Source: Candidatus Iainarchaeum sp.
GTDB taxonomy: Archaea; Iainarchaeota; Iainarchaeia; Iainarchaeales; 0-14-0-20-30-16
Length of the DNA: 11,774 bases
Reading direction: 5' to 3'
Assembly (NCBI GenBank): GCA_903916665.1
Contig: CAIWXP010000079.1
Coordinates: 1 to 11,774 of the forward strand
Shown here: piece after piece, positions 1 through 11,774 of the stretch
Layout of the letters: each line of letters begins with the position of its first letter
How positions within the stretch are numbered: position 1 is the stretch's first letter
Notes under the pieces: generated by a model
Database searches by the model: none
Seen by the model: the letters and a program-made list of their open reading frames with translations, nothing else
Told to the model about the DNA's origin: nothing
Made by a program: the position numbers and the translations under genes

Positions 1-1
1 A

Positions 2-550
2 AATATATTTTGATACGTCGCTAGTTATAAAAAAAGTATGTAAACTTCCAAAGAAAAAAGCAAGTCCCAAAAACTTATGTGTATTTTTCCACCACTGATA
101 TTTTAATTTTATATAAAATGTAATTACTAAAAATACAATCATTAAAAGTAAACCAATAATTCCTAAAGTAACTTGAAAATTAGTTCCTGGAATTATAAAT
201 AAAAATGCACTTTTTAAAGAAATAAATAAAAATTTTATTAGAAGAAATAAAGGATGAAATAATAATAATATAAATGCTATTGCACCCAATAAATGATGTG
301 CAACATATACTTTATTTTGACCACCAAATAAATTTTCAAATATCTTTAATCTTGTTGCCAACAATAATGTAATAGAAAATAATATCATTCCTAATAGTCC
401 GGTTATTTGACCTAAATTTGTAAACGTCATGGGCCAAGTAGAAAATAATTCAAAAGCAGGTTTTGACAAGTACCACACAATCAAACAAATTAAAAGCAAA
501 AATGCAATTATATAATAACCTAGATTATTTTTTAAAATTTTAACAGTCAT
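2..550 (-). CDS. Ferric-reductase/NOX-type di-haem transmembrane domain protein, N-terminal 183 codons (gene continues beyond the left edge)
   Basis: Absent from the ORF track because it is open at the window edge. Hand translation of the minus strand from ATG 550..548 gives 183 codons without a stop: MTVKILKNNLGYYIIAFLLLICLIVWYLSKPAFELFSTWPMTFTNLGQITGLLGMILFSITLLLATRLKIFENLFGGQNKVYVAHHLLGAIAFILLLFHPLF...KYQWWKNTHKFLGLAFFFGSLHTFFITSDVSKYI. It has several hydrophobic helices. It also has two His pairs with the NOX/FRE spacing: H-x13-H in HHLLGAIAFILLLFH and H-x12-H in HKFLGLAFFFGSLH. The ATG overlaps the upstream stop by 1 nt (TGATG). Confidence 0.75.
   Translation of the reverse strand, partial: MTVKILKNNLGYYIIAFLLLICLIVWYLSKPAFELFSTWPMTFTNLGQITGLLGMILFSITLLLATRLKIFENLFGGQNKVYVAHHLLGAIAFILLLFHPLFLLIKFLFISLKSAFLFIIPGTNFQVTLGIIGLLLMIVFLVITFYIKLKYQWWKNTHKFLGLAFFFGSLHTFFITSDVSKYI
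120..127. repeat. GTAATTAC palindrome copy (coding, ferric-reductase-like gene, read as V-I-T)
   Basis: Exact 8-mer; context aaaatGTAATTACtaaaa. Confidence 0.9.
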
Positions 551-1044
551 CAATTTCCACCATTAATTTTTGTTTTATCAACTGTACTATTTAACGGGTC
601 AATTAAAAAAGAATTTAATATTTGCTTTGCATTTCCCGAATGACCCCCACGTCCATTTTTAGTATCAAAAGCATTTGACCCATCAGCACCACAATAGGGT
701 AAAATAGCATTTGGTCCACCAGAATGAGAATCAGAAAATCCTGATAAATTATATACGTTTCCAGAAATATAAATCCAACAATCATTTGCAGTGTTGTGTT
801 TTGCAATTTCTATCATATCCAAAGTAATTGTTGAATTTTGAACAGTTGGTTTGTTAGAATCTGTTATAGTAATTACTGTGTTTTTATCTGTGTTAGGAGA
901 GGTTAATTTGTAATTATCATTATTATCTGATGATAAAATAGTATTTGTTTTTAGAACTGGATTATAATTTAATAAACCAACTGTTAAAACACTAATTATA
1001 ATAATTGTAAAAATAAATAAAGATATGGTAACAAATAGTTTCAT
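550..1044 (-). CDS. Membrane-anchored cytochrome b5-like haem-binding domain protein
   Basis: 164-aa ORF. N-terminal hydrophobic signal anchor (MKLFVTISLFIFTIIIISVLTVGLL), then a Thr/Asn/Ser-rich linker with N-x-S/T sequons, then a cytochrome b5-like domain. The domain reads IAKHNTANDCWIYISGNVYNLSGF..SHSGGPNAI (variant of the HPGG motif, first axial His) and GGHSGNAKQIL (second His). Confidence 0.8.
   Translation of the reverse strand: MKLFVTISLFIFTIIIISVLTVGLLNYNPVLKTNTILSSDNNDNYKLTSPNTDKNTVITITDSNKPTVQNSTITLDMIEIAKHNTANDCWIYISGNVYNLSGFSDSHSGGPNAILPYCGADGSNAFDTKNGRGGHSGNAKQILNSFLIDPLNSTVDKTKINGGN
869..876. repeat. GTAATTAC palindrome copy (coding, cytochrome b5-like gene, N-T-V-I-T)
   Basis: Exact 8-mer; context tataGTAATTACtgtg. 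Confidence 0.9.
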
Positions 1045-1074
1045 AGTATATAAACAAAATTTAAGTATATATAT

Positions 1075-1464
1075 TTATCTATTTATTACTGATGGGCTTT
1101 TAATTAATAGATTTTTCTTCTTCCATTTTCTTTTTCCACCAACGGCGCTGGTTTCTATTAAACCTATATCAACCAATGTTTTAATATAAGGATATAAACT
1201 TTTTTCATGTTTGTATTCGATTGAAAATTTTTCATTTATTTTTCTTCTTATTTCATCCATATCTTTCCATTCATCAAATGTAATAACACTTAAAACATGT
1301 TCCGCTTGCGTATTTTCTTTTGGAGTAATATATTGCCAAACATTTGCATAGTTAGAAATAAATTCATCTCTATCTATAACATCTGTTGTTTTTGCAGTTG
1401 TTGTTATTATTTCATGTACATTTTCTTTTATAAAAAAAGATTTTATTTTTGCAAATAATCCCAT
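1075..1464 (-). CDS. Hypothetical small protein, possible winged-helix DNA-binding C-terminus
   Basis: 129-aa ORF with ATG at 1464. It is preceded on the minus strand by GGTGAT (plus 1468..1473) and a TTATAAAA box (plus 1495..1502). The N-terminus is amphipathic (MGLFAKIKSFF). The C-terminal SLYPYIKTLVDIGLIETSAVGGKRKWKKK looks like a recognition helix plus basic wing. I recognise no family, so the function is a guess. Confidence 0.5.
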   Translation of the reverse strand: MGLFAKIKSFFIKENVHEIITTTAKTTDVIDRDEFISNYANVWQYITPKENTQAEHVLSVITFDEWKDMDEIRRKINEKFSIEYKHEKSLYPYIKTLVDIGLIETSAVGGKRKWKKKNLLIKSPSVINR

Positions 1465-1475
1465 ACCATCACCAA

Positions 1476-1503
1476 AATTACTGTAATTACTCTATTTTAT
1501 AAT
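1476..1503 (-). promoter_or_regulatory. TATA-like box plus tandem AATTACT / GTAATTAC operator-like element upstream of ORF 1075..1464
   Basis: Minus strand reads ATTATAAAATAGAGTAATTACAGTAATTTTGGTGATGGT-ATG. The order is TATA-like box, then GTAATTAC (1483..1490) with a second AGTAATT half 9 bp further on, then GGTGAT, then ATG. Confidence 0.45.
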
Positions 1504-1506
1504 ATA

Positions 1507-2454
1507 CTATTCTACCTTTTTAAGTAGTTGTGTTATTTCAAAAAATGTTTTTGTTTTTGATATTTCCTCTCTTAATTTTGAAGCATTTCTAACTTCTCTT
1601 ACTAAAAACATGCTTAAATTTTTTGCATTAGAAAATGTTGAATTATTTTGATCCTTTAACAATAAAGTATGATATTCCATTAAAAAATTCAATTTATTTT
1701 GGAAAGTACTGTAATTACCGTAAAGAATTTCATCAAATACAAAAGGATTTGATAGAGCCTCTCTTCCTAGCATATATCCATCACAATCAGTTTCGTTATG
1801 TATATTAGTTATATCTTCCATGTTGTGAATATCTCCATTTGCAATTATTGGTAAATTTGTTTTTTCCTTTGTTTCTTTTAGAAAATTTAAATCTATTTTA
1901 CCAGAATATTGCTGTTTTTTTGTTCTAGAATGAATAAATAAACCATCTAATCCCGAATCTTCGAGTTTATTATAATCTAAATGTTTTGTGATGTCGTAGC
2001 CAGACCGTATTTTAATAGTAAATGGTATATCAAATGCTTTTTTTGAAGCTTCAATCATTGTATTTATCTTTGATTGTCTCTTTAATAAAGCACTTCCTGC
2101 GCCCTGTGCAACAATATCTGCAGCGGGGCAACCACAGTTTAAATTAATAAAATCAATACTTATTCCTAGATCCAGGATGTTTTGAATACTTTTAACTAGT
2201 TTTTCTTCATCATTACCGAAGAATTGATAGAATACATTTTTTTCCAAATCTCCTTTTTTTATTATGTCTTTACAGTAATTACTGTCTTTACTGAGGGCAT
2301 TTATTGGAATCATCTCAGTAAATACTGAAATTTCTGTATTTTTTTGAACTAATTCTCTAAATGCCCAATTTGTGTATCCTAACAAAGGTGCCAAAAAAAG
2401 ATTATTTTTCAAACGTTTTGAACCTATTTTTATTGTTTTTATTTCCTTTACCAT
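1507..2454 (-). CDS. dus: tRNA-dihydrouridine synthase (Dus family, FMN TIM barrel)
   Basis: 315 aa. Dus-family motifs: LAPLLGYTNWAFRELV, FINLNCGCPAADIVAQGAGSALL (N-x-GCP with catalytic Cys), FTIKIRSG, FIHSRT, ANGDI. TATA-like TATAAAAAA (plus 2475..2483) lies about 25 bp upstream of the ATG. Confidence 0.9.
   Translation of the reverse strand: MVKEIKTIKIGSKRLKNNLFLAPLLGYTNWAFRELVQKNTEISVFTEMIPINALSKDSNYCKDIIKKGDLEKNVFYQFFGNDEEKLVKSIQNILDLGISIDFINLNCGCPAADIVAQGAGSALLKRQSKINTMIEASKKAFDIPFTIKIRSGYDITKHLDYNKLEDSGLDGLFIHSRTKKQQYSGKIDLNFLKETKEKTNLPIIANGDIHNMEDITNIHNETDCDGYMLGREALSNPFVFDEILYGNYSTFQNKLNFLMEYHTLLLKDQNNSTFSNAKNLSMFLVREVRNASKLREEISKTKTFFEITQLLKKVE
1711..1718. repeat. GTAATTAC palindrome copy (coding, dus, G-N-Y)
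   Basis: Exact 8-mer; context tactGTAATTACcgtaaa, the same right flank as the copy at 2561. Confidence 0.9.
2272..2285. repeat. Perfect 14-bp palindrome ACAGTAATTACTGT (coding, dus, S-N-Y-C)
   Basis: Self-complementary 14-mer, identical to 2621..2634. Confidence 0.9.
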
Positions 2455-2560
2455 GGTTTCACATCTTAAAAATATTTTTTATACCTGTCCTAGTTTTTGT
2501 GTATTTTAACTAATTTACTTCAACAAAATAAATATTCATAAAAATTAACTAATAATTATA

Positions 2561-2568
2561 GTAATTAC
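2561..2568. repeat. GTAATTAC palindrome copy (intergenic, upstream of dus)
   Basis: Exact 8-mer; context tataGTAATTACcgtaaa. Confidence 0.9.
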
Positions 2569-2620
2569 CGTAAATATTATAAATTGATTTATTTTTCTTC
2601 ACAAATTTGAATTAGTTCTT

Positions 2621-2634
2621 ACAGTAATTACTGT
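2621..2634. repeat. Perfect 14-bp palindrome ACAGTAATTACTGT (intergenic, 9 bp from the GT2 stop codon)
   Basis: Self-complementary 14-mer, identical to 2272..2285. Confidence 0.9.
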
Positions 2635-2642
2635 TTGTACCA

Positions 2643-3554
2643 TTATCGAGTTAGCCACCATTCCTTTATTGCTTTTATGTAGTATTTTGGTTTCATACTC
2701 CAAGATTCTAGCAACAGTAACACTGGTTTTACATTTAGCCAGGCAAAGAGCCAAATTCCATCCAATAGATTAGTAATTACTATAATTATGCCAATTACTG
2801 GTCTTAAATAATATAATCGTCTATAGGCACTATATATTATAGAAAACCTATCCTCTTCTATCCATAGTATTTGTTTGATAAATCCAAGTATACTGGATTT
2901 TCGCAATATTTTATAGGACATTTTTAAGTAATTCCAAGTACCTTGCAATTTGCTAACTTTATTATATTGATGAACAGTATAAAGGTTTTCACAAAAAATA
3001 GTTCTAATTATTTGTGCTCTATATATATAATGTAAATTAGTAGTTATTTCTAAAAGATATCCCCCAGAATCAGGAATTTTGATATCTGCAAAATCTTTTT
3101 TCCAAAAACAACGTTCTCCTCCAAAAAATCTTGCGCAATTTGTCCAACCCCACAGAGGAACCCTATCTCCAGCTCTATCTAATATAGTTTGTGATACCTC
3201 TCTATACATAACAGGTAATATTAATGAATCTATATTTTCTTTTGTTAAATTAATTAAATCAGCATCCAATAATACAATAAGATTTCCTAATGCCTGTTTA
3301 ATTCCTTTTTTAACTCCTGCTGTTTTTCCTAAATTAATTTCATTTTTTAATAATATTAATTTTTTAGACTGTTTTTGAAATCGTTTTATAATATTAACAG
3401 TGCCGTCCTTTGATCCATCATCAACAATTATTATTTCATCAAATTTAGAATATTGTATAATTATTTCTAGAACTCTTGCAATATTTTTTTCTTCGTTGTA
3501 GGCTGGAACTATACAAGTAATTACTGTATTTTCTTCATATTTTAAATTAGACAT
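2643..3554 (-). CDS. Family 2 glycosyltransferase (GT-A fold) with C-terminal membrane helices
   Basis: 303 aa. Motifs CIVPAYNEEKNI, IIIVDDGSKDGT, GKTAGVKKG and VLLDADL (DxD). C-terminal hydrophobic segment VIGIIIVITNLLDGIWLFAWL. Confidence 0.9.
   Translation of the reverse strand: MSNLKYEENTVITCIVPAYNEEKNIARVLEIIIQYSKFDEIIIVDDGSKDGTVNIIKRFQKQSKKLILLKNEINLGKTAGVKKGIKQALGNLIVLLDADLINLTKENIDSLILPVMYREVSQTILDRAGDRVPLWGWTNCARFFGGERCFWKKDFADIKIPDSGGYLLEITTNLHYIYRAQIIRTIFCENLYTVHQYNKVSKLQGTWNYLKMSYKILRKSSILGFIKQILWIEEDRFSIIYSAYRRLYYLRPVIGIIIVITNLLDGIWLFAWLNVKPVLLLLESWSMKPKYYIKAIKEWWLTR
2773..2780. repeat. GTAATTAC palindrome copy (coding, GT2, V-I-T)
   Basis: Exact 8-mer; context attaGTAATTACtata. 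Confidence 0.9.
3517..3524. repeat. GTAATTAC palindrome copy (coding, GT2, N-T-V-I-T)
   Basis: Exact 8-mer; context acaaGTAATTACtgta. Confidence 0.9.
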
Positions 3555-3569
3555 AGTAGAATGAGTTAC

Positions 3570-3583
3570 AAAAAATTTATAAA
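3570..3583 (-). promoter_or_regulatory. TATA-like box TTTATAAA for the GT2 gene, fused to a T-tract that could terminate the upstream tRNA
   Basis: The minus strand after the tRNA 3' end reads CTAATTTCTTTATAAATTTTTTGTAACTCATTCTACT-ATG. TTTATAAA (3576..3583) is centred about 25 bp upstream of ATG 3554, which is leaderless spacing. The T-rich run follows the tRNA directly. Confidence 0.45.
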
Positions 3584-3591
3584 GAAATTAG

Positions 3592-3666
3592 TAGCGAGGG
3601 TTGGATTTGAACCAACGACCTCCGGGTTATGAGCCCGGCGGGCACTCCAAGCTGCCCTACCTCGCT
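3592..3666 (-). tRNA. Initiator tRNA-Met (anticodon CAT), no encoded CCA
   Basis: Minus-strand sequence AGCGAGG-TA-GGGC-AGCTTGGAGT-GCCC-G-CCGGG-CTCATAA-CCCGG-AGGTC-GTTGG-TTCAAAT-CCAAC-CCTCGCT-A folds as a 75-nt cloverleaf. It has a perfect 7-bp acceptor stem and 4-bp D, 5-bp anticodon and 5-bp T stems. The A1:U72 pair and three consecutive G:C pairs (29-31:39-41) next to the CAU loop are initiator hallmarks in archaea and eukaryotes. Confidence 0.9.
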
Positions 3667-4192
3667 ATAGGTATAACTTTTTAATGAATTCTAAATCATT
3701 TTCTATATTAGTTATTTCACTAGCTATATTTATACTTCTTGATTTTTTATCAATCAATATTAAATTTTGATTACAATGTGGACAAGTAAAATCATATTCT
3801 GCTGCAATTTCAAATGGTATTTCATTGCACAAATTTTTACAGGTAAAATAATCATATTCTGTTAGTAACCTTAATTTGTCACCTAATTTTGCTTTTCGTT
3901 CTAAATGTTCTTGGGATATTAAAGTAGCCAATTTTTTTAGATCTACGCTCCAATAAAAATTATACCAACCAGATTTTTGATCTTTTTCTTTTTCGTATTT
4001 TACAATACCCCTAAAACTTAATTTATTTAATGTTGATCTTACAATTGTTACTTTTTGTCCAACCAAATCAGCTAATTTTTCATCATTGGTAACTTCTTTC
4101 GAACCATTCCATTTAGATAAAATATCATAGGCATTTTTATCTATTTTGTCTAAAAAATCTTTTGTGATATCTAACTCAAGAACTCGTTGCAT
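3665..4192 (-). CDS. tfe: Transcription factor E alpha subunit (TFE, TFIIE-alpha homologue)
   Basis: Winged-helix N-terminal half (DEKLADLVGQKVTIVRSTLNKLSFRGIVKYEK...GWYNFYWSVD) plus a zinc ribbon (FTCKNLC...FTCPHCNQNL). The ORF track starts at a TTG (4210). I prefer ATG 4192 (MQRVLELD...), which has TTTAAATA (plus 4213..4220) about 25 bp upstream. The stop TAG (3667..3665) overlaps tRNA positions 1-2. Confidence 0.85.
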   Translation of the reverse strand: MQRVLELDITKDFLDKIDKNAYDILSKWNGSKEVTNDEKLADLVGQKVTIVRSTLNKLSFRGIVKYEKEKDQKSGWYNFYWSVDLKKLATLISQEHLERKAKLGDKLRLLTEYDYFTCKNLCNEIPFEIAAEYDFTCPHCNQNLILIDKKSRSINIASEITNIENDLEFIKKLYL

Positions 4193-4212
4193 AAATAATA
4201 TTTTCAGCAAAC

Positions 4213-4220
4213 TATTTAAA
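4213..4220 (-). promoter_or_regulatory. TATA-like box of tfe
   Basis: Minus strand reads TTTAAATA, centred about 24-25 bp upstream of ATG 4192. This is consistent with a leaderless transcript. Confidence 0.45.
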
Positions 4221-4260
4221 AACTAAATCCTCTTTTTATATTAAATTTCGTTTTTTTTAA

Positions 4261-4268
4261 GTAATTAC
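4261..4268. repeat. GTAATTAC palindrome copy containing the abcE1 stop codon; degenerate copy GTAATTAT at 4280..4287
   Basis: Exact 8-mer; context tttaaGTAATTACgagtaaatataGTAATTATttt. Confidence 0.9.
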
Positions 4269-6040
4269 GAGTAAATATAGTAATTATTTTTTTCTTTTTG
4301 CTCTTTATCTTTACTTGAATTTAATTTATTTATTCTTGGTCTTTTTGTGTTTGGGTCCTTTCTATAAGTTATATTTAAAGTTTTTAAAAACTCATTCATT
4401 GCGTCTTTTTTATTCATTATTTTTGAGACCTTTCCTTCTTTTCCTGGAACTCCTGCAAAAATTAGCATAGCATCAGAAATAAAATCCAAAAATAAAACGT
4501 CATGATCAACAACAAATGCAACTTTATTCTTTCCAAAAATTACATTTCTAATTGCTTTTGCAACATTTAGTCGTTCTTCAACATCTAGGAATGCGCTAGG
4601 TTCATCAAATAGATAAACATTTGCATCAGTAGCCAATACTTTTGTGGTAATTACCTTTTGCAAATCTCCTCCATTTAATTCAGATAGCTTATACATTTTT
4701 ATTCTTTCTATATTTAATTTATTCCATAAATCTTTTAATAAATCTTGATTACAATCTTTTAAATATAACATTACAGGCAGGTCCATTTCCTTTTGTGTTA
4801 ATAATAAACTTTGAGGCTTATATGCAAATTTCAAATTTTCATAATTTCCTGCATCTTGTAAAATATTTCTTATAAATGTTGTTTTGCCCGTACCATTTTC
4901 TCCAAGAATTCCAATAATCTGATTTGCTAAAACATGGTCTCCAGAATATTCTAATGTAAAATCTCCTAATTTAATTTTTTTGGCGTCATAGGTAAACAAA
5001 GTATCCTTCGTTTTTATGTTGCTAGGAGTATATTCAATATTTAATATATAGTCTCTAAATTTCAAATTTTCATCTTTAATAAAACCATCTAAAAATTCAT
5101 TTATTGCTACATTTGTATTTTTTATGTGTGAGCAGATACCATAGGCGTGGGCTTGACCAAATAAAATATGTGATGATTCTGCAACATAATCTAAGATTGC
5201 TAAATCATGTTCAATAATAATATTGGTTTTTTCCTTTTTTCCAGTTTCCTGTTGAACGCCAACCAATGCAGAACTGTTTAGATTGGTTGCAAATAAAAAT
5301 CTTTGTTTAATATCTAAAAATGAACTAGGTTCATCAAAAAACGAAACACTACAATCTTTTAGTATTGTTGAAACTATTGCAACCTTTTGCAATTCTCCGC
5401 CAGACAGATTTTGTAATTCTTTATTTAAAATATTTTCCAATTGCCATTCAATTATAATTTTGTCCAACACTTTATTTTTATCTGCCTTTTCCAATAAATC
5501 TTTAACCTTTCCCGCAAAAACCCGTGGAATTAATTCAATGTTCTGTGGTTTATAGGCAAAATCTAAAACCTTATTATTTAAATCAATAAAAGTTTTTTGT
5601 ATTTCTCTACCTTTGAAATAATCTATTACTTTTTTATAATCTGTAGTTTCTTTATATTTCCCCAAATTAGGAATTATTTGCCCTGCCAATATTTTAATTA
5701 TTGTTGATTTTCCTATACCATTTTGACCTATAATTCCTATATTTTGATTTTTTGGCAGATCAATGAATCTAAATAATCTAAACCTATTTTCCCCATATTG
5801 GTGCAAAGGATCATCCAATATTAACTCTAAATTTATTATTTTTATGGCATTAAAAGGGCATTTAAATACACAAATACCACAACCAGAACATAACCCTTCA
5901 TCTATTTTTATTATTTCGTCTTCATAGTATACAACCTTTTTATTCATTCTGTTTAACGGGCAAACCTTAATACAAACTTCACCACAAAGTTTGGGCTTAC
6001 ATTTTTTGTTGTCTATTATTGCTATTCGTCTCTTATACAT
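4265..6040 (-). CDS. abcE1: ABCE1 / RNase L inhibitor-type ribosome-recycling ATPase (twin NBD with N-terminal 2x[4Fe-4S] domain)
   Basis: N-terminal RIAIIDNKKCKPKLCGEVCIKVCP and CSGCGICVFKCP ferredoxin-type clusters. Walker A GQNGIGKST and GENGTGKTT. Signatures LSGGELQKV and LNGGDLQKV. Walker B FFDEPSS and LFDEPSA. The ORF track begins at TTG 6049; ATG 6040 (MYKRRIAIID) is the likelier start. Confidence 0.95.
   Translation of the reverse strand: MYKRRIAIIDNKKCKPKLCGEVCIKVCPLNRMNKKVVYYEDEIIKIDEGLCSGCGICVFKCPFNAIKIINLELILDDPLHQYGENRFRLFRFIDLPKNQNIGIIGQNGIGKSTIIKILAGQIIPNLGKYKETTDYKKVIDYFKGREIQKTFIDLNNKVLDFAYKPQNIELIPRVFAGKVKDLLEKADKNKVLDKIIIEWQLENILNKELQNLSGGELQKVAIVSTILKDCSVSFFDEPSSFLDIKQRFLFATNLNSSALVGVQQETGKKEKTNIIIEHDLAILDYVAESSHILFGQAHAYGICSHIKNTNVAINEFLDGFIKDENLKFRDYILNIEYTPSNIKTKDTLFTYDAKKIKLGDFTLEYSGDHVLANQIIGILGENGTGKTTFIRNILQDAGNYENLKFAYKPQSLLLTQKEMDLPVMLYLKDCNQDLLKDLWNKLNIERIKMYKLSELNGGDLQKVITTKVLATDANVYLFDEPSAFLDVEERLNVAKAIRNVIFGKNKVAFVVDHDVLFLDFISDAMLIFAGVPGKEGKVSKIMNKKDAMNEFLKTLNITYRKDPNTKRPRINKLNSSKDKEQKEKNNYYIYS
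4647..4654. repeat. GTAATTAC palindrome copy (coding, abcE1 NBD2 just after the signature motif, V-I-T)
   Basis: Exact 8-mer; context tgtgGTAATTACcttt; encodes QKVITT. Confidence 0.9.
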
Positions 6041-6097
6041 AAGTATCAAATTTCAATTATAAAAAGTCTTATATAGATTTCAATTATATATTATATT
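6041..6097. promoter_or_regulatory. Shared divergent control region of abcE1 and pelota, with back-to-back TATA-like boxes and a 12-bp direct repeat
   Basis: 57 bp between ATG 6040 (-) and ATG 6098 (+). TTATATA at 6069..6075 is about 26 bp upstream of pelota. TTTTTATAA (minus strand, plus 6057..6065) is about 21 bp upstream of abcE1. The perfect direct repeat ATTTCAATTATA occurs at 6050..6061 and 6077..6088. Confidence 0.5.
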
Positions 6098-7141
6098 ATG
6101 AAAGTATATAAAAAAAGTTTTAAAGACTTGTTTTTTGAATTAGGTGTAGAATCAATAGATGATTTATGGGTTTTAAGCCTGTTTATTACAGAAGGGGATA
6201 GAGCTGGTACTCAAACTACGAGACGTTTTAGAGTTGGGGATAGTGTAGATTCTGAAAAAAAGCAAGTTTTTATTAAAATTGATGTAAAAAGTATAAAATT
6301 GGATTTGGATTTGCAAACATTAAAGGTAATAGGTATTATTGAATCTGGTTTCCCGAGCCAATATGTTAATGTGGGCGAACATCATAGTTTTGATTTACAC
6401 GTTGGCGATAAAATAAGCATCAACAAAAGTATTTTGTTGGAAATACAAAAAAAGATTTTGACCAAAGCCATGGATAAAAAAATAAATAGTAAAGTCTATT
6501 TGGTAGTGTTAGATGACGATTCCTGTGTTATTGCTAGCTTAAATGAATCGCGCTATAACATAATCACAGAAATTAGTTTTAGAGGGTCAGGAAAAAGAGA
6601 TCCTGCTATAAAAGAAGGTTCGAGACAAAATTATTTTGATTCCATATTAAAAGTAATTACCAATGATCAATTTGATAATTGCATTATTGGCGGGCCTGGA
6701 TTTGAAAAAGAAAATTTACAAAAATATATATTACAAAAAGTTACAGATAAAAAACTTTTGGGCAAATTTACATTTACTCAAGCAGCAAGTCCAGGAATAT
6801 CGGGAATAAAAGAATTAATTAACGGAGGGGCAGTTAAACGAATATTAAATGATTTAACTGTTCAAAAAGATTCTGATTTAATTGATGAATTCTTATTGCA
6901 TTTGGCAAAAGATAAGCCAGTTACCTATGGGTTAGTTCAAATTAAAGAAGAACTAAATAAAAATGCATTGAGAATGGTTTTAATTAGCGATAAATTTTTT
7001 CATGAAAATTTTAACGAGATAAAAAATTTGTTATTATTATTAGAAGACAATAAAATTGAATATCACATTTTAAATTCAAATGCAGAGCCAGGAAGAATAT
7101 TAGATAATATGACCGGAATTGCTGCATTTTTATATTATTAG
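6098..7141 (+). CDS. pelA: Archaeal Pelota (Dom34 homologue), ribosome rescue / no-go decay factor
   Basis: 347 aa. Pelota-type N-terminus (VESIDDLWVLSLFITEGDRAGTQTTRR), central GGPGFEKENL motif, and a C-terminal eRF1-like domain 3 (LISDKFF...LEDNKIEYHILNSNAEPGRIL..MTGIAAFLYY). Confidence 0.9.
   Translation: MKVYKKSFKDLFFELGVESIDDLWVLSLFITEGDRAGTQTTRRFRVGDSVDSEKKQVFIKIDVKSIKLDLDLQTLKVIGIIESGFPSQYVNVGEHHSFDLHVGDKISINKSILLEIQKKILTKAMDKKINSKVYLVVLDDDSCVIASLNESRYNIITEISFRGSGKRDPAIKEGSRQNYFDSILKVITNDQFDNCIIGGPGFEKENLQKYILQKVTDKKLLGKFTFTQAASPGISGIKELINGGAVKRILNDLTVQKDSDLIDEFLLHLAKDKPVTYGLVQIKEELNKNALRMVLISDKFFHENFNEIKNLLLLLEDNKIEYHILNSNAEPGRILDNMTGIAAFLYY
6653..6660. repeat. GTAATTAC palindrome copy (coding, pelota, V-I-T)
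   Basis: Exact 8-mer; context aaaaGTAATTACcaat. Confidence 0.9.
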
Positions 7142-7182
7142 CCCATTAATAGGGTAATTTTGTATGTTGGTTTGGTGAATAT

Positions 7183-8067
7183 ATGTATTTAGTAACTATT
7201 AATAGAAATATATCGGCAGAGGAATTTAAAAAAATATTAACAAATTTAAAAATTGATAAAATTGCACATCAAGTAGACTCATGGAATTATAGTAATATTT
7301 TATTTCCTAGAAAACCTGATTTTTTTAATGGAATTTCACAAATAATAGAATTATATAATGAGTTTGAAGTTACGACCATTAGTGAAATTGTAGATAAAAT
7401 TAGTAAATATAAAATAAAACAAATAAATGCTAAAATTAAAAAAGATTTAAAATTTCACAAACAAGCAATTGAAGAAAGATTTTTAAGAAAAAACAAATTT
7501 TATAATGATGGAATTATATTATATTTAGAAGCAAAACATAGAGGGAATAAGATATATTGTAGAATAGGAAAAATATTATCAGAAACTCCCGAATCTAAAA
7601 TAAGTTTAATAGAAAAATTACCAACTATGAAAGTAAAAGAAATTGCTTTGTTATTGGAAAATACATCCAATGCAAACGAGATTGCTGATTTTTTAAGATT
7701 GGGTGTTGCATTGCAATGCAATATATTTTTTAAAACAAATAAAGATATGACAAAAGAAATTCTAGATGCACAAAAATTATTCAAATCCAATAAAATAAAA
7801 TATAAAATTATTTCGGATTTAAAAGAAATAAAGGACTATTATTTAATTGGTTTTAGCCTATGGGGAAAAGAAAACGAAAAATCATTATTAACTATAAATG
7901 AAAATAAAATTATGTTATTGTTTGGTAATGAGAATAGAGGGTTGTTAAAAGAAACCATGGATGCATGCAATAAAACAGTTTACTTGGGACCAAAAAGCTC
8001 GGAACCATTAAGAGCAAATCAAGCGGCAGCCTACGCCTATGGTATTTTAAGTATAAATGGTAAGTGA
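7183..8067 (+). CDS. SPOUT (SpoU/TrmH-like) RNA methyltransferase with an unassigned N-terminal extension of about 150 aa
   Basis: The C-terminal third carries SpoU-type motifs: IMLLFGNENRGLLKETMDACNKTVYL and SEPLRANQAAAYAYGIL (knot region). The N-terminal half matches nothing I recognise. GGTGA (7174..7178) lies 4 nt upstream of the ATG. Confidence 0.65.
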   Translation: MYLVTINRNISAEEFKKILTNLKIDKIAHQVDSWNYSNILFPRKPDFFNGISQIIELYNEFEVTTISEIVDKISKYKIKQINAKIKKDLKFHKQAIEERFLRKNKFYNDGIILYLEAKHRGNKIYCRIGKILSETPESKISLIEKLPTMKVKEIALLLENTSNANEIADFLRLGVALQCNIFFKTNKDMTKEILDAQKLFKSNKIKYKIISDLKEIKDYYLIGFSLWGKENEKSLLTINENKIMLLFGNENRGLLKETMDACNKTVYLGPKSSEPLRANQAAAYAYGILSINGK

Positions 8068-9175
8068 TTATATGATAATTGATGTACCCATGCACGATAA
8101 ATTTGAAGAATTAAAAAAAGTATTAAATGGTATTAAAAAAGGAGAAAAAATATTAATTATTGGAGATAGCGATGGTGATGGAATTCCAGGAGCAGCAATA
8201 TTTGCGAAGATATTAAAGAAATTAGGATTAGAATATAAAAAAGATTTTCAAGTAGTGTTTGTTGAACATGATTTTAGGAATTTTATAAAAGAAAATAAAG
8301 AACAGCAAGAATATTTTAAAACTTTTAATTATCTATTTTTAATTGATATGTCCATGGATGATTATTCGTTCTTAACAAATAATTATATTTGTGTTATAGA
8401 TCATCATAAAGCAGAAGGAAAGGTTAATTTAATGATTAATCCGATGTATGACTCGGAAATGAAAAACAAAATAAATTGTTGTGCCTGTGCATTATGCTAT
8501 TGCATATATAGTTATATGTTTGGCGAAAATAAAATATTGCAAAAAATTGCATTTTCTGCATCTGTTGCAGATTGGTTTCCAATGGGTTCCTTGCCCTATT
8601 TGAATATTTCAAAAGATGATCCAGAATATTTTGTAAATGGAGGCTATGTTATTCCATCAATTTATCCATTAACAACAATATGTTATTTGGCCAAAGATTT
8701 AGAATTTGGTTCTAGTTGGGCTTTTGAAAAATTCTTTTTTGAAACGGATAAAGATTTAAAGTCAATAGCAATATTACCATTAAATTTTTATCAAAAATTA
8801 AATAAACAACATATTAATGCATCAAAAATAATGCAAACTGTTTTTGATACTGCCGAAACTTATACTAATTTAGTAATATTGGTTTTAAAAGAAAAAGATA
8901 GAGAATATAAAGTTACAATAAATACCACTTTACAAGCAGTTTATTCAAATGTTACGAGTATAGTTTGTTTTGAAAATAAAAAAGAAAAAGGTTATAACCT
9001 TTCAACTAGATCTCAAATAATTGATTTAGTTAAATTAGGAGATTTTGTTAAATCACAATTAAAAACAATGTCTGGCGGGGGGCATTCTGTTGCTGCCGGT
9101 TTTTTTGTTAAAAAAACAGAATTTGAAAAATGTAAAAAGCTAATAATTGAAAACTATGAAAAGTTTAGAAAGTGA
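8057..9175 (+). CDS. DHH/DHHA1 phosphoesterase, archaeal RecJ/GAN-like
   Basis: Motifs ILIIGDSDGDGIPGAAIF (DHH motifs I-II), VIDHHK (motif III) and GGGHSVAAGF (DHHA1). An alternative start at ATG 8072 lies just after AGTGAT and would remove the 11-nt overlap with the upstream gene. Confidence 0.85.
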   Translation: MVSDYMIIDVPMHDKFEELKKVLNGIKKGEKILIIGDSDGDGIPGAAIFAKILKKLGLEYKKDFQVVFVEHDFRNFIKENKEQQEYFKTFNYLFLIDMSMDDYSFLTNNYICVIDHHKAEGKVNLMINPMYDSEMKNKINCCACALCYCIYSYMFGENKILQKIAFSASVADWFPMGSLPYLNISKDDPEYFVNGGYVIPSIYPLTTICYLAKDLEFGSSWAFEKFFFETDKDLKSIAILPLNFYQKLNKQHINASKIMQTVFDTAETYTNLVILVLKEKDREYKVTINTTLQAVYSNVTSIVCFENKKEKGYNLSTRSQIIDLVKLGDFVKSQLKTMSGGGHSVAAGFFVKKTEFEKCKKLIIENYEKFRK

Positions 9176-9179
9176 ATTC

Positions 9180-10016
9180 ATGAATATTGATGGTATTTAT
9201 TTTGGAACATCTGGTGTTCCAGATAATTATTTTAAAACAAAGTATAAAAAAGACCGGAAGAATATTGTTGATTGGCTCCACGATTTAAATTTAAATGCCT
9301 ATGAACATTTGTACACCTATGGTGTTAGAGGTTCTGAAGAAAAGAATGAATATATTAAACGAAAAGTCAACGAATATAATATAATGTTATCTTTGCATTC
9401 TCCTTACTATATTGTTTTAACAAGTGATAAAAAAGAAACCATTGAAAATTCACAAAAAGAATTATTAAAAACATTAGATAGTGCAAAATATTTTAATTGT
9501 AAAAGAATAGTTTTGCACCCTGGGTTTACAAATAATAAAGATGCTTTGAAAAGTTTTATAAAAAATTTAAAAGAAACAATTGCAATACACGAATATGCAA
9601 AATATATTGTTCCAGAAACTATGGGCAAAAAATCTCAATTAGGATCTTTAGATGATATAATAGAAATTTGTAGAGAAACAGGAATTAAACCCTGCATAGA
9701 TTTTGGTCATTTGCACGCTCGTGATCAAGGTTGCTTAAATAATGAAAATGATTTTAAGAATATTATTGAGAAATTAGAAAATAGTTTAGGTAAAGCAAGT
9801 ATTAAAAATCTACATTGTCACTTTTATCCTGTAGCCTATACTGACAAAGGAGAAAAGGTTCATAGGGCTGCAATGGAAGAAGATGCATTTCCTAAATTTA
9901 TACATTTTGCCCCAATAATAAAAGAATTTAATCTAGAACCAGTATTAATATCAGAATCCCATAATAGTCAAGATATTGGTGCTTTGCAAATGAAAGATAT
10001 TTTAAGTAAACTGTGA
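9180..10016 (+). CDS. AP endonuclease family 2 (Endo IV-like) / xylose-isomerase-like TIM-barrel protein
   Basis: Motif series LHSPYYIVL, IVLHPGF, VPETMGKKSQLGS, CIDFGHLHA and LHCHF resembles the metal-ligand strands of the Endo IV fold. The ORF track starts at ATG 9147, a 29-nt overlap with the upstream gene. I prefer ATG 9180 (MNIDGIYFGTSG), 4 nt after the upstream TGA. The start is uncertain. Confidence 0.7.
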   Translation: MNIDGIYFGTSGVPDNYFKTKYKKDRKNIVDWLHDLNLNAYEHLYTYGVRGSEEKNEYIKRKVNEYNIMLSLHSPYYIVLTSDKKETIENSQKELLKTLDSAKYFNCKRIVLHPGFTNNKDALKSFIKNLKETIAIHEYAKYIVPETMGKKSQLGSLDDIIEICRETGIKPCIDFGHLHARDQGCLNNENDFKNIIEKLENSLGKASIKNLHCHFYPVAYTDKGEKVHRAAMEEDAFPKFIHFAPIIKEFNLEPVLISESHNSQDIGALQMKDILSKL

Positions 10017-10027
10017 GTTGTATATTT

Positions 10028-11011
10028 ATGAGTTCATTAATAATTAAAGATATTGTATATGGTGAGTTTGAAATTACAGAACCTGTATTAATTGAATTAA
10101 TAAATTCAAAACCTGTTCAAAGATTAAAAAATATTTGGCAACATGGTTTGCCAAAAAAATATTATTATATGCCAACCTTTACAAGGTATGATCATTCCTT
10201 AGGAGTAATGTTATTATTGAGAAAATTAAATGTAAGTTTAGAAGAACAGATTGCTGGCTTATTACACGATGTTTCGCACACTGCATTTTCACATGTTGCT
10301 GATTATTTTTATGGAACTATGGGAAAAGACGATTATCAGGATTCTATTTTAGATGAATTTCTTTTGCAAACAGAAATACCTCAAATATTAAAAAAATATA
10401 GTTTAAATGTTGAGAATATTTTGAGTAGTGAAAAATATACTTTATTGGATAGGCCAGTACCTTCGCTATGTGCTGACAGATATGATTATGCAATAAGAGA
10501 AATATATATGATGAAATCAAAAACTGACGCGGCAAATTTAACAAATTCTCTAACAACTAAAAATCAAGAAATGGTTTTTAAAGATTATGATTCTGCAAAT
10601 TTATTTTCAAATTATTTTTTAGAATTTCAAAAAACGCATTGGGGCGAACCAGGAGATATGTATAGATATTTGTTTTTTGCAAATCTATTAAAATATGCAA
10701 TAGATAAAAAGGTAATTTTAGAAACTGACTTTCGTAAAGACGATTATTATATTATAAATAAATTAGAAAATTCAAAAGATATTTTTATTCTTAATGCTTT
10801 AGAAAAAGTTAAAACAAAATTTAAATTTAAAATAGTAGAGTCAGAAGAAGACCATTTGTTGGTAAATAAGTTTAGATATGTTGATGCAAAATATTTTGAT
10901 AATAATAGACAAATAAAAAAAGTTTCAGAAACAAATTTGAAATTTAAAAGAGATTTAGAAATAGCAAAACTAATTCACGAAAAAGGATATAAAATAAAGT
11001 TATTAAATTAA
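10028..11011 (+). CDS. HD-domain metal-dependent phosphohydrolase (dNTPase/SAMHD1-like HD core)
   Basis: RYDHSLGVMLLLRKL ... AGLLHDVSHTAFSHVADYF gives the H...HD...D pattern of the HD superfamily. The ORF track starts at GTG 10013, overlapping the upstream stop. ATG 10028 (MSSLIIKD) is the alternative used here. Confidence 0.75.
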   Translation: MSSLIIKDIVYGEFEITEPVLIELINSKPVQRLKNIWQHGLPKKYYYMPTFTRYDHSLGVMLLLRKLNVSLEEQIAGLLHDVSHTAFSHVADYFYGTMGKDDYQDSILDEFLLQTEIPQILKKYSLNVENILSSEKYTLLDRPVPSLCADRYDYAIREIYMMKSKTDAANLTNSLTTKNQEMVFKDYDSANLFSNYFLEFQKTHWGEPGDMYRYLFFANLLKYAIDKKVILETDFRKDDYYIINKLENSKDIFILNALEKVKTKFKFKIVESEEDHLLVNKFRYVDAKYFDNNRQIKKVSETNLKFKRDLEIAKLIHEKGYKIKLLN

Positions 11012-11013
11012 AT

Positions 11014-11757
11014 TTATTTCTTTGCTATTTTCCAAAGTTGTTCAAAATATTTCTTGTAGTTTTCTGCAAATTCTTCATTTTCAATAACTACTGCAAATGG
11101 TTCTTTTGTCCATGACTGTAATACTACTTTATTTGAATAAATTTGCGTTGCTGCTGGTGAAATAGAAGTAATTGGCATAAATTTGTAATTTACATATTGC
11201 ATTGATTTGGGAAACTGATTAATCTTTTTTTTGACATCAGAAGTATTATTATAAATTATTTTCATCCAAATCTTTTTTTTAATTCGTTCCTGATGCCAAT
11301 GTTCCATAAATACTGGAATTACTTCATAGGATGAACGAGAGCTTCCAAAAGATAAAAATTCTTTAACATTGGATTTTAATATATCATTCATTACTGCCTT
11401 TAATCCTTCTTTTCCTTCATAAATTTCAACTTTTGGTCTTTTTTGTCCCTTAGTTTTATGCAATAATTCTAATTTGGGCAAAACATTTTGTAAAAGTACT
11501 TCCTTTTCTTTTAAACTTAATAATAGTTCTTTTGGATCTGATGCTCTAAAATATTTTTTTCTTTCTAATTTTGAATAGGATATTAAGCCAATGTTAATTA
11601 ACCTTTCCAATATATCATAGGTTAATGTTCTTGGTAAATCACTTTTCAGCGCAATATCATTTGCTGTTGAGTCTCCTAGAGATAAACAAGCCAGGTAAGT
11701 TTTGGCTTCCTTTTCACTCAATCCATATTCTTTTAAAGCAATTAATAAATTATCCAT
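11014..11757 (-). CDS. TrmB-family transcriptional regulator
   Basis: 247 aa. The N-terminal TrmB-type wHTH reads LKEYGLSEKEAKTYLACLSLGDSTANDIALKSDLPRTLTYDILERLINIGLISY, followed by a coiled-coil linker and a C-terminal effector-like domain. Confidence 0.9.
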   Translation of the reverse strand: MDNLLIALKEYGLSEKEAKTYLACLSLGDSTANDIALKSDLPRTLTYDILERLINIGLISYSKLERKKYFRASDPKELLLSLKEKEVLLQNVLPKLELLHKTKGQKRPKVEIYEGKEGLKAVMNDILKSNVKEFLSFGSSRSSYEVIPVFMEHWHQERIKKKIWMKIIYNNTSDVKKKINQFPKSMQYVNYKFMPITSISPAATQIYSNKVVLQSWTKEPFAVVIENEEFAENYKKYFEQLWKIAKK

Positions 11758-11774
11758 AATAATATTATAAAAAT

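Follow-up and report, generated by a model that had tools for sequence, protein, structure and literature searches.

The palindromic 8-mer GTAATTAC occurs exactly 12 times in the window (the whole stretch of DNA analysed, 11,774 nucleotides), which is a complete 11.8-kb contig from a low-GC, Diapherotrites-like DPANN archaeon, where 0.2-0.4 copies are expected. The word is a conserved local cluster covering a zone of about 6 kb, it follows a winged-helix gene across related loci, and selection at the level of DNA maintains it. Among the tiny archaea of this lineage, one site has grown into about a dozen. On balance, we favour the explanation that an operator expanded into a parS-like array of many sites, which would be recognised by a dimeric, sequence-specific binder, most probably the protein encoded at 1075-1464.

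Exact copies start at positions 120, 869, 1483, 1711, 2275, 2561, 2624, 2773, 3517, 4261, 4647 and 6653, and an exact search of the window found none in 6661-11774. A recount confirmed these coordinates, which had been listed in a preliminary description of the window. For 12 uniformly placed copies, our own arithmetic, (6660/11774)^12, gives a probability of about 0.001 that the last 5.1 kb would have none. The excess over chance, previously estimated by hand, also holds, as dinucleotide shuffles and Markov models yield only 0.2-0.4 copies; the shuffles averaged 0.30 copies and never exceeded 4 (12 or more in 0 of 200), and Markov orders 1-3 predict 0.22-0.37. GTAATTAC is the commonest palindromic 8-mer of the window and the only one that is strongly over-represented. 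A third of the copies (4/12) are non-coding.

The copy at 120-127 lies in a partial minus-strand membrane-protein ORF (approximately 546 to 1) that is cut short by the end of the contig, where our by-eye translation gives FLVITFY, and the copy at 869-876 is read as NTVITITD in a cytochrome-b5-domain ORF. An exact site at 1483-1490 falls between the stop codon of dus and the ribosome-binding site of the winged-helix ORF; on the minus strand, GGTGAT occupies 1473-1468 and the ATG is at 1464. A degenerate unit, AAAATTAC, is found nearby at 1474-1481. The dus gene itself (1507-2454, minus strand) encodes a tRNA-dihydrouridine synthase (Pfam Dus, E=2.8e-53) and carries a core site at 2266-2291 and a second site at 1711-1718, read as G-N-Y (GGT AAT TAC). 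This second site is also found in loci L014 (AGT AAT TAC) and L015, and other relatives are without the word at that column. The GT2 glycosyltransferase gene has one copy in its C-terminal part (2773-2780, IIVITNL) and one at its N-terminus (3517-3524, NTVITCIVPA), both orthologous in L014, L018 and L020. Further along, 4261-4268, a site shared with L003 and L014, overlaps the ABCE1 stop codon, and 4647-4654 lies within ABCE1 past the NBD2 signature (LNGGDLQKVITTKVL). The outermost site on the far side, at 6653-6660 in Pelota (SILKVITNDQ), has an apparent orthologue in L005 on visual comparison of the flanking sequences. On its upstream side, the cluster is marked by a conserved tRNA-Met gene (3591-3666, minus strand), and the order TFE, tRNA-Met, winged-helix ORF is kept even in distant relatives.

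The core sites are built from three tandem 9-bp units with a perfect centre. The one in dus (2266-2291) reads GTCTTTAC-a-GTAATTAC-t-GTCTTTAC, or GTAAAGAC-A-GTAATTAC-T-GTAAAGAC on the dus-sense strand, where it encodes SKD-SNY-CKD. Core site B (2552-2577), in the dus upstream region, also has three 9-bp units (ATAATTAT-a-GTAATTAC-c-GTAAATAT), with a TATA-like TTTATAA in its flank on the dus-sense strand. Its block TTTATAAT-ATTTACG-GTAATTAC-TATAAT is kept in the window, L005, L013, L014, L015, L017, L019, L020 and L145, and the intergenic DNA around the block is not alignable among relatives. Core site A (2615-2640; GTTCTTAC-a-GTAATTAC-t-GTTTGTAC) directly follows the GT2 stop codon, 63 bp from B, and contains the 14-mer ACAGTAATTACTGT. 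The extended flanks described earlier are borne out: ACAGTAATTACTGT is present at 2272-2285 and 2621-2634, AGTAATTACT occurs five times in the window, and GTAATTACCGTAAA is common to the copies at 1711 and 2561. A logo of the flanks shows degenerate GTAAnnAC units at -9 and +9. In relatives, core sites are spaced 30-93 bp apart with a phase of 10.4-10.6 bp (R=0.70 vs a null 99th percentile of 0.68), although some of these sites are orthologous, so both this phasing and the pooled density given below overstate the number of independent observations. The right half-site of E. coli relO is TTGTAATTACAA, to which adjacent repressor dimers bind (PMC2812701). This half-site may serve, by analogy, as a functional precedent for the word.

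We sampled approximately 150 kb around this one locus, on contigs no longer than 22 kb. When 15 related loci, whose sites are partly orthologous, are pooled, density is highest beside the dus start (2.78 and 2.37 per kb in the two flanking 1-kb bins). It declines to 1.06, 0.58, 0.55 and 0.14 per kb in the next upstream bins, and to 0.34, 0.15 and then about 0 further downstream, a decay over about 4 kb on the upstream side and 2 kb on the downstream side. Across 12 related loci, the exact word occurs 1.23 times per kb within the zone and 0.032 times per kb in the 93.6 kb outside it, which matches the chance rate from Markov models (~0.02-0.03 per kb). One-mismatch variants are not enriched (1.00 per kb inside vs 0.82 outside).

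Does the word follow the encoded peptides, or the peptides the word? The coding copies read as had been claimed: six as V-I-T in five proteins (counting the copy at 120, read by eye) and two as N-Y in Dus; among fully annotated coding copies, the numbers are five and two. Six of the seven VIT tripeptides in the window are indeed spelled by the word, and the seventh, in the winged-helix ORF, is GTT ATT ACA, itself a one-mismatch copy of GTAATTAC at 1280. VIT occurs 6 times in the 12 annotated ORFs against 0.81 expected (7.4-fold). Our codon-aware nulls considered the 7 copies inside these 12 ORFs, leaving out the copy at 120. Shuffling synonymous codons within genes gave a mean of 1.21 copies and a maximum of 5 in 2000 shuffles, and shuffling codon order gave 0.22.

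Comparison with relatives also bears on this. The core site in dus (2266-2291) occupies the same alignment column in all nine Dus genes of the clade. The residue preceding N-Y is S, C, R or G in these nine, yet its codon is NGT every time, which indicates that selection acts on the DNA. An unlinked Dus of L148 has unrelated sequence at this position. In ABCE1, NBD1 reads QKVAIV and NBD2 QKVITT, as previously stated, and only the window, L003 and L010 have VIT and the word at the NBD2 position, with VMV, VIV, VLV, VFI or VAV there in the other relatives. ABCE1 sites appear at five different alignment columns across lineages and arose where codons were replaced by rare synonymous ones (for example AGA by CGT, or TAT by TAC). 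The suggestion that the DNA word constrains the protein is therefore upheld by the codon shuffles, which fail to reproduce the count, by the variable Dus residue with its fixed NGT, and by the lineage-specific VIT of ABCE1.

The cluster also has a consistent relationship with the winged-helix gene. An exact copy lies 4-19 nt before the start of this gene in 10 of 13 distinct loci, which supports, as the core of our explanation, the earlier suggestion of an operator word. In the remaining three, the winged-helix gene is fused behind dus and 2-3 sites are found upstream of dus. In L013, L015 and L019, the dus stop codon is directly followed by the winged-helix ribosome-binding site and ATG. Dus and the downstream winged-helix ORF apparently form an operon, and the dus upstream region, its putative promoter, holds a further 2-3 copies. 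L147 has no dus at this locus; two sites immediately precede its winged-helix ORF, and none occur in the next 10 kb. L148 (43% GC) has a single site in 20.5 kb; it lies 17 nt ahead of the winged-helix ORF, directly beside a TATA-like box, a placement that by our own estimate has a chance probability of about 7e-4.

The winged-helix ORF (1075-1464, minus strand) encodes 129 amino acids: an N-terminal amphipathic helix, a disordered linker, a winged helix-turn-helix and a basic tail. The AlphaFold model has a pLDDT of 80-90 over residues 50-120 and an H-H-H-beta-beta topology, with SLYPYIKTLVD as the recognition helix and VGGKRKWKKK as the wing. The protein is predicted from this model to adopt a winged-helix fold, and its best PDB fold matches with Foldseek are winged-helix DNA-binding domains throughout (Fur, RosR, F-93, PadR-like and TubR). 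Pfam PadR (PF03551) matched only weakly and below threshold (15.1 bits vs a cut-off of 27, E=0.023; 13.8 bits for an orthologue). We found no NCBIfam match, no sequence match in the PDB and no relative among plasmid or phage collections; the family is unnamed and lineage-restricted. In its recognition helix, S, L, Y, Y, K and D are invariant, with P and T conserved to 90% or more. An N-terminal helix of the form M-G-L-F-x-K-I-K-S-x-F is likewise conserved. The proposal to test this protein as the binder was well aimed. Its gene lies in the middle of the array and the word travels with it; position and co-occurrence are what suggest that it binds GTAATTAC. The TrmB-like protein at 11014-11757, put forward alongside it, lies outside the cluster, and nothing connects it with the word.

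We propose that the ancestral state was a single operator over the promoter or 5' region of the winged-helix gene, giving negative autoregulation; the single-site arrangement can still be observed in the higher-GC relatives. In the low-GC clade, dus would have been inserted between tRNA-Met and the winged-helix gene, becoming the first gene of the operon, after which the operators multiplied. The core set comprises 2-3 sites in the putative dus promoter region, plus one within dus and another ahead of the winged-helix ORF, all of them built as three consecutive 9-bp units around a perfect centre. Auxiliary sites would be single exact copies fixed by point mutation in GT2, ABCE1, Pelota and other genes, settling where V-I-T or (NGT)-N-Y codons can be tolerated. 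Helically phased proteins bound there might cooperate through side-by-side contacts, looping or bridging, producing a nucleoprotein domain of about 6 kb and concentrating the protein at its own locus. Binding would presumably repress the operon, with a possible contribution from the auxiliary sites. Candidate roles of the expansion include looping, a local protein reservoir and chromosome anchoring.

Several points weigh against an operator. A palindrome of 8 bp is on the short side for a winged-helix dimer, tandem 9-bp units are more reminiscent of ribbon-helix-helix operators than of winged-helix ones, and exact-only enrichment is more typical of parS, uptake sequences and enzyme sites. Simple autoregulation does not need some ten extra sites in essential and probably well-expressed genes such as ABCE1 and Pelota, and protein bound within such genes could obstruct RNA polymerase.

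Among the alternatives, the idea that the word merely reflects codon usage coinciding with conserved peptides in an AT-rich genome is the easiest to set aside. At 26% GC, the codons GTA, ATT and ACN are frequent, and several coding sites are orthologous among close relatives, but the nulls (0.2-0.4 by composition, 1.21 with synonymous codons) fall far below the 7-12 copies observed, four copies are non-coding, amino acids shift as the word stays, and relatives lacking the word carry different residues. Given these nulls and the constant NGT of Dus, we reject it as having practically no chance of being correct. The preliminary description also raised a word like HIP1. Such a word would be spread genome-wide by a mutational bias linked to a methyltransferase or to repair, with the window as a dense patch. 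The enrichment of the exact word over its one-mismatch neighbours is as in HIP1, as is a word crossing coding and non-coding DNA and reshaping codon and amino-acid choice. However, this reading is very improbable, as the chance-level density in the roughly 94 kb of flanks marks a local cluster rather than a genomic word, the profile is sharply peaked at one locus in every relative, and no DNA methyltransferase domain was found in the window ORFs. It also seems highly unlikely that the word acts as an RNA element, where copies of the self-complementary GUAAUUAC would pair with one another, or with a small RNA transcribed upstream of dus, and so govern how neighbouring mRNAs are translated or how stable they are. 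In the predicted fold, sites A and B can pair over about 15 bp, the dus/winged-helix junction has a site just 5' of the ribosome-binding site, and a palindrome appears in RNA from either transcribed strand. Yet the intergenic region does not fold more stably than its shuffles (z = -1.07), Rfam gives only the tRNA, spacing is phased to the DNA helical repeat, the lone copy in higher-GC relatives has no partner and sits beside a TATA-like box, and pairing in trans leaves unexplained why all the targets are neighbours. We give a similarly small chance to a replication origin or iteron array, in which the 9-bp units would be bound by the winged-helix protein, acting as an initiator or origin-binding factor peculiar to the lineage. 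Orc1/Cdc6, WhiP and plasmid Rep proteins do employ winged-helix domains, the core units resemble tandem direct repeats and lie in intergenic DNA beside a tRNA gene, and cumulative GC skew has its minimum near 6050. However, this switch falls exactly where Pelota and ABCE1 diverge and is explained by gene orientation, higher-GC relatives have only one site, and an archaeal origin of the ORB and Orc1/Cdc6 type finds no support, since most sites are intragenic and no orc1/cdc6 or helicase genes occur within 10 kb.

The alternative that deserves most attention, though we consider it rather unlikely, is a centromere-like or anchoring cluster, in which the array would nucleate a higher-order complex of the winged-helix protein. 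This complex would mark the chromosomal locus to be segregated, or use the N-terminal amphipathic helix of the protein to anchor it at the membrane or divisome. Such a role can coexist with an operator, since ParB, omega and AspA both bind centromeres and autoregulate. Only exact palindromes are enriched, about one site per 0.5 kb over some 6 kb, inside and outside genes and graded around the gene of the presumed binder, and all of the repeated gains of sites took place close to the existing cluster. The five strongest parS sites of Caulobacter fall in a 5-kb segment near the origin, and new parS sites are tolerated there only in the vicinity of the native cluster, a clustering proposed to raise local ParB (PMC5815017); the array here parallels this. 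In most homologues, the hydrophobic moment of the conserved N-terminal helix is moderate to high, but in the window protein it is unremarkable (0.36 vs a shuffle mean of 0.30). The winged-helix gene is syntenic in relatives with genes for PRC-barrel proteins, a family implicated in archaeal cell division (bioRxiv 10.1101/2023.03.28.534520), but these genes are missing from the window itself. The fold matches include TubR, a winged-helix protein that binds centromeres, yet the single site of higher-GC relatives is the pattern of an operator and not of a centromere. A parS-like or nucleoid-protein loading cluster had been suggested from the outset, and its anatomy stands; membership in a ParABS system is unsupported, since neither ParB nor ParA, SegAB or any other partition NTPase was found within 10 kb in any locus.

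Among known systems, HIP1 of cyanobacteria (GCGATCGC) is likewise an over-represented, exact 8-bp palindrome that crosses coding and non-coding DNA and biases codons, but HIP1 is genome-wide, and GTAATTAC is at chance outside one zone in the sampled flanks. Autoregulators of the PadR, MarR and RosR type share with our proposal a winged helix, a palindrome over their own promoter or 5' region and the single-site ancestral state. However, the protein here scores below the Pfam PadR threshold, 8 bp is unusually short for the class, and about a dozen copies extend across neighbouring genes. Ordinary operators also tolerate mismatches, whereas here the exact word alone is enriched.

The parS sites of ParB are also short, exact palindromes, several per few kb inside and outside coding sequence, in one tight cluster by which alone new sites gather, with high local protein as the proposed purpose. 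Clusters of parS lie near parB, and the array here surrounds the gene of its presumed binder. The differences are that parS is 16 bp long against 8 bp here, that the core sites are 9-bp tandem triplets, that the host is an archaeon, and that the presumed binder is a 129-aa winged-helix protein and not a ParB (HTH plus CTPase); no ParB domain was found in the window ORFs or the 10-kb flanks in relatives, nor a ParA/SegA-type ATPase within the sampled 10-kb flanks. The winged-helix AspA of pNOB8 and SegB are small archaeal binders with a palindrome upstream of their own gene, on which a larger complex is built. Their ParA/ParB or SegA partners adjoin the binder there but not here, and we detected no sequence similarity to them in plasmid and phage collections or the PDB. 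The ribbon-helix-helix operators, namely the met-boxes of MetJ, relO of RelB and the omega heptads, differ in unit length (6-8 bp vs 9 bp here) and in that single sites are dispersed in genes here, and no ribbon-helix-helix domain was found in the window ORFs. They nevertheless resemble the core sites in their contiguous short units, which by analogy would imply dimers bound cooperatively side by side, and omega arrays act as operator and centromere at once.

The window is one whole contig of 11,774 bp from an archaeon at 26% GC, and its proteins have their nearest named relatives in MAGs of Diapherotrites, Micrarchaeota and Woesearchaeota. At its left end, a partial membrane ORF (about 546-1, minus strand) is followed by a cytochrome-b5-domain ORF (550-1044), which lies downstream of the small ORF (1075-1464) of a minus-strand run that also comprises dus, a GT2 glycosyltransferase, tRNA-Met, TFE-alpha and ABCE1. 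Divergent from this run are Pelota, a SpoU-like protein, DHH, an AP endonuclease and an HD protein, after which comes a TrmB-like gene on the minus strand. By our own reading, the peptide HKFLGLAFFFGSLH in the partial membrane ORF looks like a ferric-reductase-type haem-binding motif.

Recounting the 8-letter palindrome GTAATTAC (the word) gave 12 exact copies and none past 6660, in exact agreement with the preliminary description, whose details of the flanks were also reproduced: the 14-mers (ACAGTAATTACTGT), the five copies of AGTAATTACT and the GTAATTACCGTAAA in common between copies. Dinucleotide shuffling predicts 0.30 copies (maximum 4) and Markov models of orders 1-3 predict 0.22-0.37, and no other palindromic 8-mer is strongly over-represented in the window. 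Three copies are intergenic (1483, 2561 and 2624), one (4261) overlaps the stop codon of ABCE1, and one (120) lies in the partial minus-strand membrane-protein ORF running off the contig (FLVITFY, translated by eye from the printed sequence). Annotated ORFs hold seven copies, five read as V-I-T and two as N-Y (in Dus). Codon-shuffled nulls, proposed as a check in the preliminary description, fall well short of these seven: synonymous shuffling yields 1.21 (maximum 5 in 2000) and codon-order shuffling 0.22. The VIT tripeptide is itself 7.4-fold above expectation in these ORFs; amino-acid sequence and codon choice are therefore both bent towards the word.

The word is the centre of a larger site. 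A logo of 44 sites has degenerate copies of the word at -9 and +9, giving [GTAAnnAC]-n-[GTAATTAC]-n-[GTAAnnAC]. Core sites, consisting of three such 9-bp units with a perfect centre (26-bp core GTAAAGACAGTAATTACTGTAAAGAC), occur inside dus (2266-2291, GTAAAGAC-A-GTAATTAC-T-GTAAAGAC) and twice in the dus upstream region, where site A (2615-2640) follows the stop codon of GT2 and site B occupies 2552-2577. The site B block TTTATAAT-ATTTACG-GTAATTAC-TATAAT is kept across relatives, while the remaining intergenic DNA is not alignable. Intragenic sites at the periphery are mostly single words. The 14 distinct short spacings (30-93 bp) are best phased at 10.4-10.6 bp (R = 0.70 vs 0.68 for the 99th percentile of the null maximum over periods of 8-13 bp, a statistic weakened by orthology between loci), which suggests proteins bound along one helix face.

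We collected syntenic loci from other genomes (designated by L numbers) through homology searches, with identities of 56-87% for ABCE1 or 46-83% for Dus; the ABCE1 protein, scanned against a genome collection, matched nothing beyond an Iainarchaeum locus at 43% identity and a bacterial ABC protein. All loci spanning tRNA-Met, dus and the small ORF carry the word there, and almost nowhere else: L007 has 9 copies in 21.7 kb (8 inside 1.9 kb), L005 has 5 in 21.7 kb (4 inside 1.1 kb), L013 has 8 in 11.8 kb (all within the first 3.6 kb), L015 has 4 in 12.7 kb (all inside 0.9 kb) and L145 has 7 in 20.4 kb (6 inside 2.5 kb). When 15 related loci are pooled, the two central 1-kb bins at the dus start hold 2.78 and 2.37 copies per kb, declining by 1-kb bin to 1.06, 0.58, 0.55 and 0.14 upstream and to 0.34 and 0.15 downstream, with approximately zero farther out. 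The zone from ~4 kb upstream to ~2 kb downstream of the dus start contains 1.23 exact words per kb, against 0.032 per kb across the 93.6 kb outside it, which is the rate expected from composition. One-mismatch variants are not enriched (1.00 per kb in the zone vs 0.82 outside), indicating that all eight positions matter. A scan of viral sequences with the 14-mer gave at most one match per contig, and only a handful of the matched loci hold 3-5 copies of the word.

The site lists also record no copy in any TFE-alpha gene (window 3665-4210 and all related loci). This gene sits between ABCE1 and the GT2/dus region, each with about one copy per kb, and from this local density we estimate that ~5 copies would be expected over the pooled TFE genes.

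The surroundings of the array vary between genomes. At the place of window 1-1044, the relatives have a conserved 196-200-aa ORF and PRC-barrel genes instead, of which tblastn of the window found no trace. A 192-200-aa ORF is convergent to the small ORF in every relative, from 22% to 43% GC (L005 14091-14687; L007 14821-15414; L013 4184-4762; L015 3095-3697; L145 10408-10998; L147 956-1537; L148 10448-11044); one or two PRC-barrel genes usually come next. No Pfam or NCBIfam family matches this ORF, which may be functionally linked to the small-ORF protein. The tRNA-Met gene after TFE (window 3555-3666) is the break point of seven independent assemblies, which end inside it (L003, L004, L006, L008, L009, L010 and L012). 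The slot separating tRNA-Met from dus differs in content: GT2 is found there in the window, L007, L014, L017, L018 and L020, an inverted GT4/GT1 gene in L145, and nothing in L005 and L013. It looks like a strain-variable region or an insertion hot spot beside a tRNA gene. L145 also carries a pyruvate phosphate dikinase gene (16553-20402) with an intein bearing a LAGLIDADG homing-endonuclease domain, its product being 1288 aa vs 760-764 aa in L005 and L007; a 1289-aa ORF occupies the syntenic position in L015 (8728-12597).

The position of the word points to the small ORF. Of 13 distinct loci, 10 have an exact copy 4-19 nt ahead of the start codon of this ORF. In the remaining three, the dus stop codon is immediately followed by the RBS and ATG of the small ORF, and the 2-3 sites upstream of dus would act for the whole operon. 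L147 (35% GC) has no dus here, and 480 bp separate tRNA-Met from the small ORF; the word occurs at -94 and -12 of this ORF, and not in the following 10 kb. In L148 (43% GC, Diapherotrites-like, contigs of 0.5-1.2 Mb), with the gene order TFE, tRNA-Met, small ORF, the sole copy in 20.5 kb sits 17 nt ahead of the small ORF, flanked by degenerate units and a TATA-like TTTATAA; we estimate the chance of such a placement at ~7e-4 (30 positions x 2.5e-5).

Other elements are also present in these intergenic regions. Between tRNA-Met and the small ORF of L147 (178-400) are 3-4 direct repeats of ~28-31 nt, ending ACACTCAC(AAAA), with a spacing of 41-51 bp and no relation to the word. Every low-GC relative has a second conserved box, CACAAAAAYTAGGAC, situated 35-45 nt ahead of the start codon of dus and directly preceding an A/T-rich TATA-like stretch (window 2487-2501, minus strand; L005 12656; L007 13357; L014 3164; L015 1684; L017 254; L018 1345; L019 316; L020 1173; L145 8973). 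In L148 (9293) it comes immediately after the TFE stop codon, upstream of tRNA-Met. Candidate roles for this box are a promoter or BRE element, or the binding site of a further regulator.

The small-ORF protein has no match above threshold in Pfam or NCBIfam (PadR, at E=0.02, is under the family cut-off) and no relative among PDB sequences. Its family is a restricted one: among 1.84 billion proteins it forms 39 clusters at 50% identity, and at 90% identity there are 332 clusters; tblastn against plasmid and phage collections gave no match. A structure model, confident over residues 50-120, predicts a winged helix-turn-helix whose fold matches include the Fur DNA-binding domain, Halobacterium RosR, viral F-93, PadR-like proteins and TubR. 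The predicted recognition helix and wing (RSLYPYIKTLVD...GGKRKW) are almost invariant over the whole family, which fits a single conserved DNA word. The N-terminus (window 1425-1464) is a conserved family helix, M-G/N/S-L-F-x-K-I/L-K-S-x-F (MGLFxKIKSxF), amphipathic in most members but to an unremarkable degree in the window protein; it leads into a low-complexity linker of 0 to >100 residues that is Asn-rich in some members. This helix and linker resemble membrane-targeting or partner-binding peptides. A PCNA-binding PIP-box was rejected, as neither the Q nor the second aromatic residue is conserved.

Within genes, the DNA is kept while the protein changes. The Dus site is found in all nine clade Dus genes, where the residue preceding Asn-Tyr is Ser, Cys, Arg or Gly, yet its codon is always AGT, TGT, CGT or GGT; since NGT is constant while the residue varies, it is the word that is kept. 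The S/G (NGT) pattern recurs at two further Dus columns, and the unlinked Dus of a distant relative has unrelated sequence at the Dus-site column. In ABCE1, the word occurs at five alignment columns that differ by lineage, created by substitutions (e.g. AGA to CGT, GGA to GGT, TAT to TAC) that run against the codon preference of the genome. Past the NBD2 signature, VIT is restricted to sequences with the word, while others have VMV, VIV, VLV, VFI or VAV. The preliminary description had proposed that the word constrains the protein rather than the reverse, and the contrary pattern, VIT or NY conserved in relatives without the word, was not seen in either Dus or ABCE1. We also considered the 9-bp units as footprints of a transposon with 9-bp target duplications. 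This was dropped because the Dus triplet has the same residue count as the L148 Dus stretch, leaving no insertion, and because new sites come from point substitutions.

Several other explanations were weighed. A word iterated genome-wide like HIP1, one of the alternatives in the preliminary description, is contradicted by the density in the flanks and is rejected for all sampled DNA, as outside the zone the word is at its composition expectation. A coincidence of codon usage fails against all nulls. Pairing of the copies at the RNA level is opposed by the relatives with a single copy and by the spacing phased to the DNA helix; moreover, the dus upstream region folds no better than its shuffles (z = -1.07), and an Rfam search returned tRNA as the sole match. 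A replication origin is set aside: there is no initiator gene within 10 kb, and the skew switch coincides with the switch in gene orientation.

The array is real, conserved and locally confined, consisting of exact palindromes of the protein-binding type that are maintained by selection on DNA. Comparative genomics ties it to its putative binder, the uncharacterised winged-helix protein, and the word is best explained as this protein's operator, the two forming a new candidate operator/regulator pair with an unusual parS-like expansion. The ancestral state would be one autoregulatory word at the winged-helix gene's own promoter; in the low-GC clade, this operator may have grown into a cooperative array centred on the promoter of the dus/winged-helix operon, with auxiliary exact sites becoming fixed in neighbouring genes. 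The function of this expansion we can only infer.

A further reading, which we think improbable, makes the array a centromere or anchor of the chromosome, of a type so far undescribed in archaea. A new family of small winged-helix proteins, widespread in Diapherotrites-like DPANN archaea, would nucleate on the word, the dozen helically phased sites would be bridged into one compact complex, and the conserved N-terminal amphipathic helix would tether the locus to the membrane or to PRC-barrel/FtsZ division machinery. The winged-helix gene adjoins PRC-barrel genes in relatives, and the PRC-barrel family is implicated in cell division of archaea (bioRxiv 10.1101/2023.03.28.534520), so a chromosome-anchoring role is worth testing, although these neighbours are only a lead.

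How DPANN archaea regulate their genes and handle their chromosomes has hardly been studied, since the organisms are uncultured and their genomes tiny. This locus couples an exact word of 8 bp with its candidate binder, a member of an unnamed family of winged-helix proteins, and selection on its DNA can be read directly from codon choice and repeated independent gains of sites. Inside one clade, a single autoregulatory operator appears to have become a parS-like array of ~12 sites; the growth of such clusters is an open question in bacterial centromere research (PMC5815017). Should the chromosome turn out to be organised or anchored by the array, archaeal segregation would have a new component.

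Short units in tandem are usually associated with ribbon-helix-helix operators. The octamer d(GTAATTAC)2 has been used in Sso7d structures. The same octamer is found in Cren7-DNA crystal structures (PMC5042384), and the perfect half-site of E. coli relO, the relBE operator, is TTGTAATTACAA (PMC2812701). We regard the Cren7 octamer and relBE half-site matches as sequence coincidence, not homology; literature searches on the word yielded primers, the Sso7d/Cren7 crystallisation octamer and relO, but no archaeal element. Unlike in parS systems, no ParB, ParA or SegAB genes are nearby. As a centromere, the array would work in the same way as ParB/parS, Noc/NBS and MatP/matS, although its parts are unrelated to theirs. 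In anatomy it is similar to clusters of parS: Caulobacter has its five strongest parS sites inside 5 kb and tolerates new ones solely near the native cluster, a clustering proposed to increase local ParB (PMC5815017).
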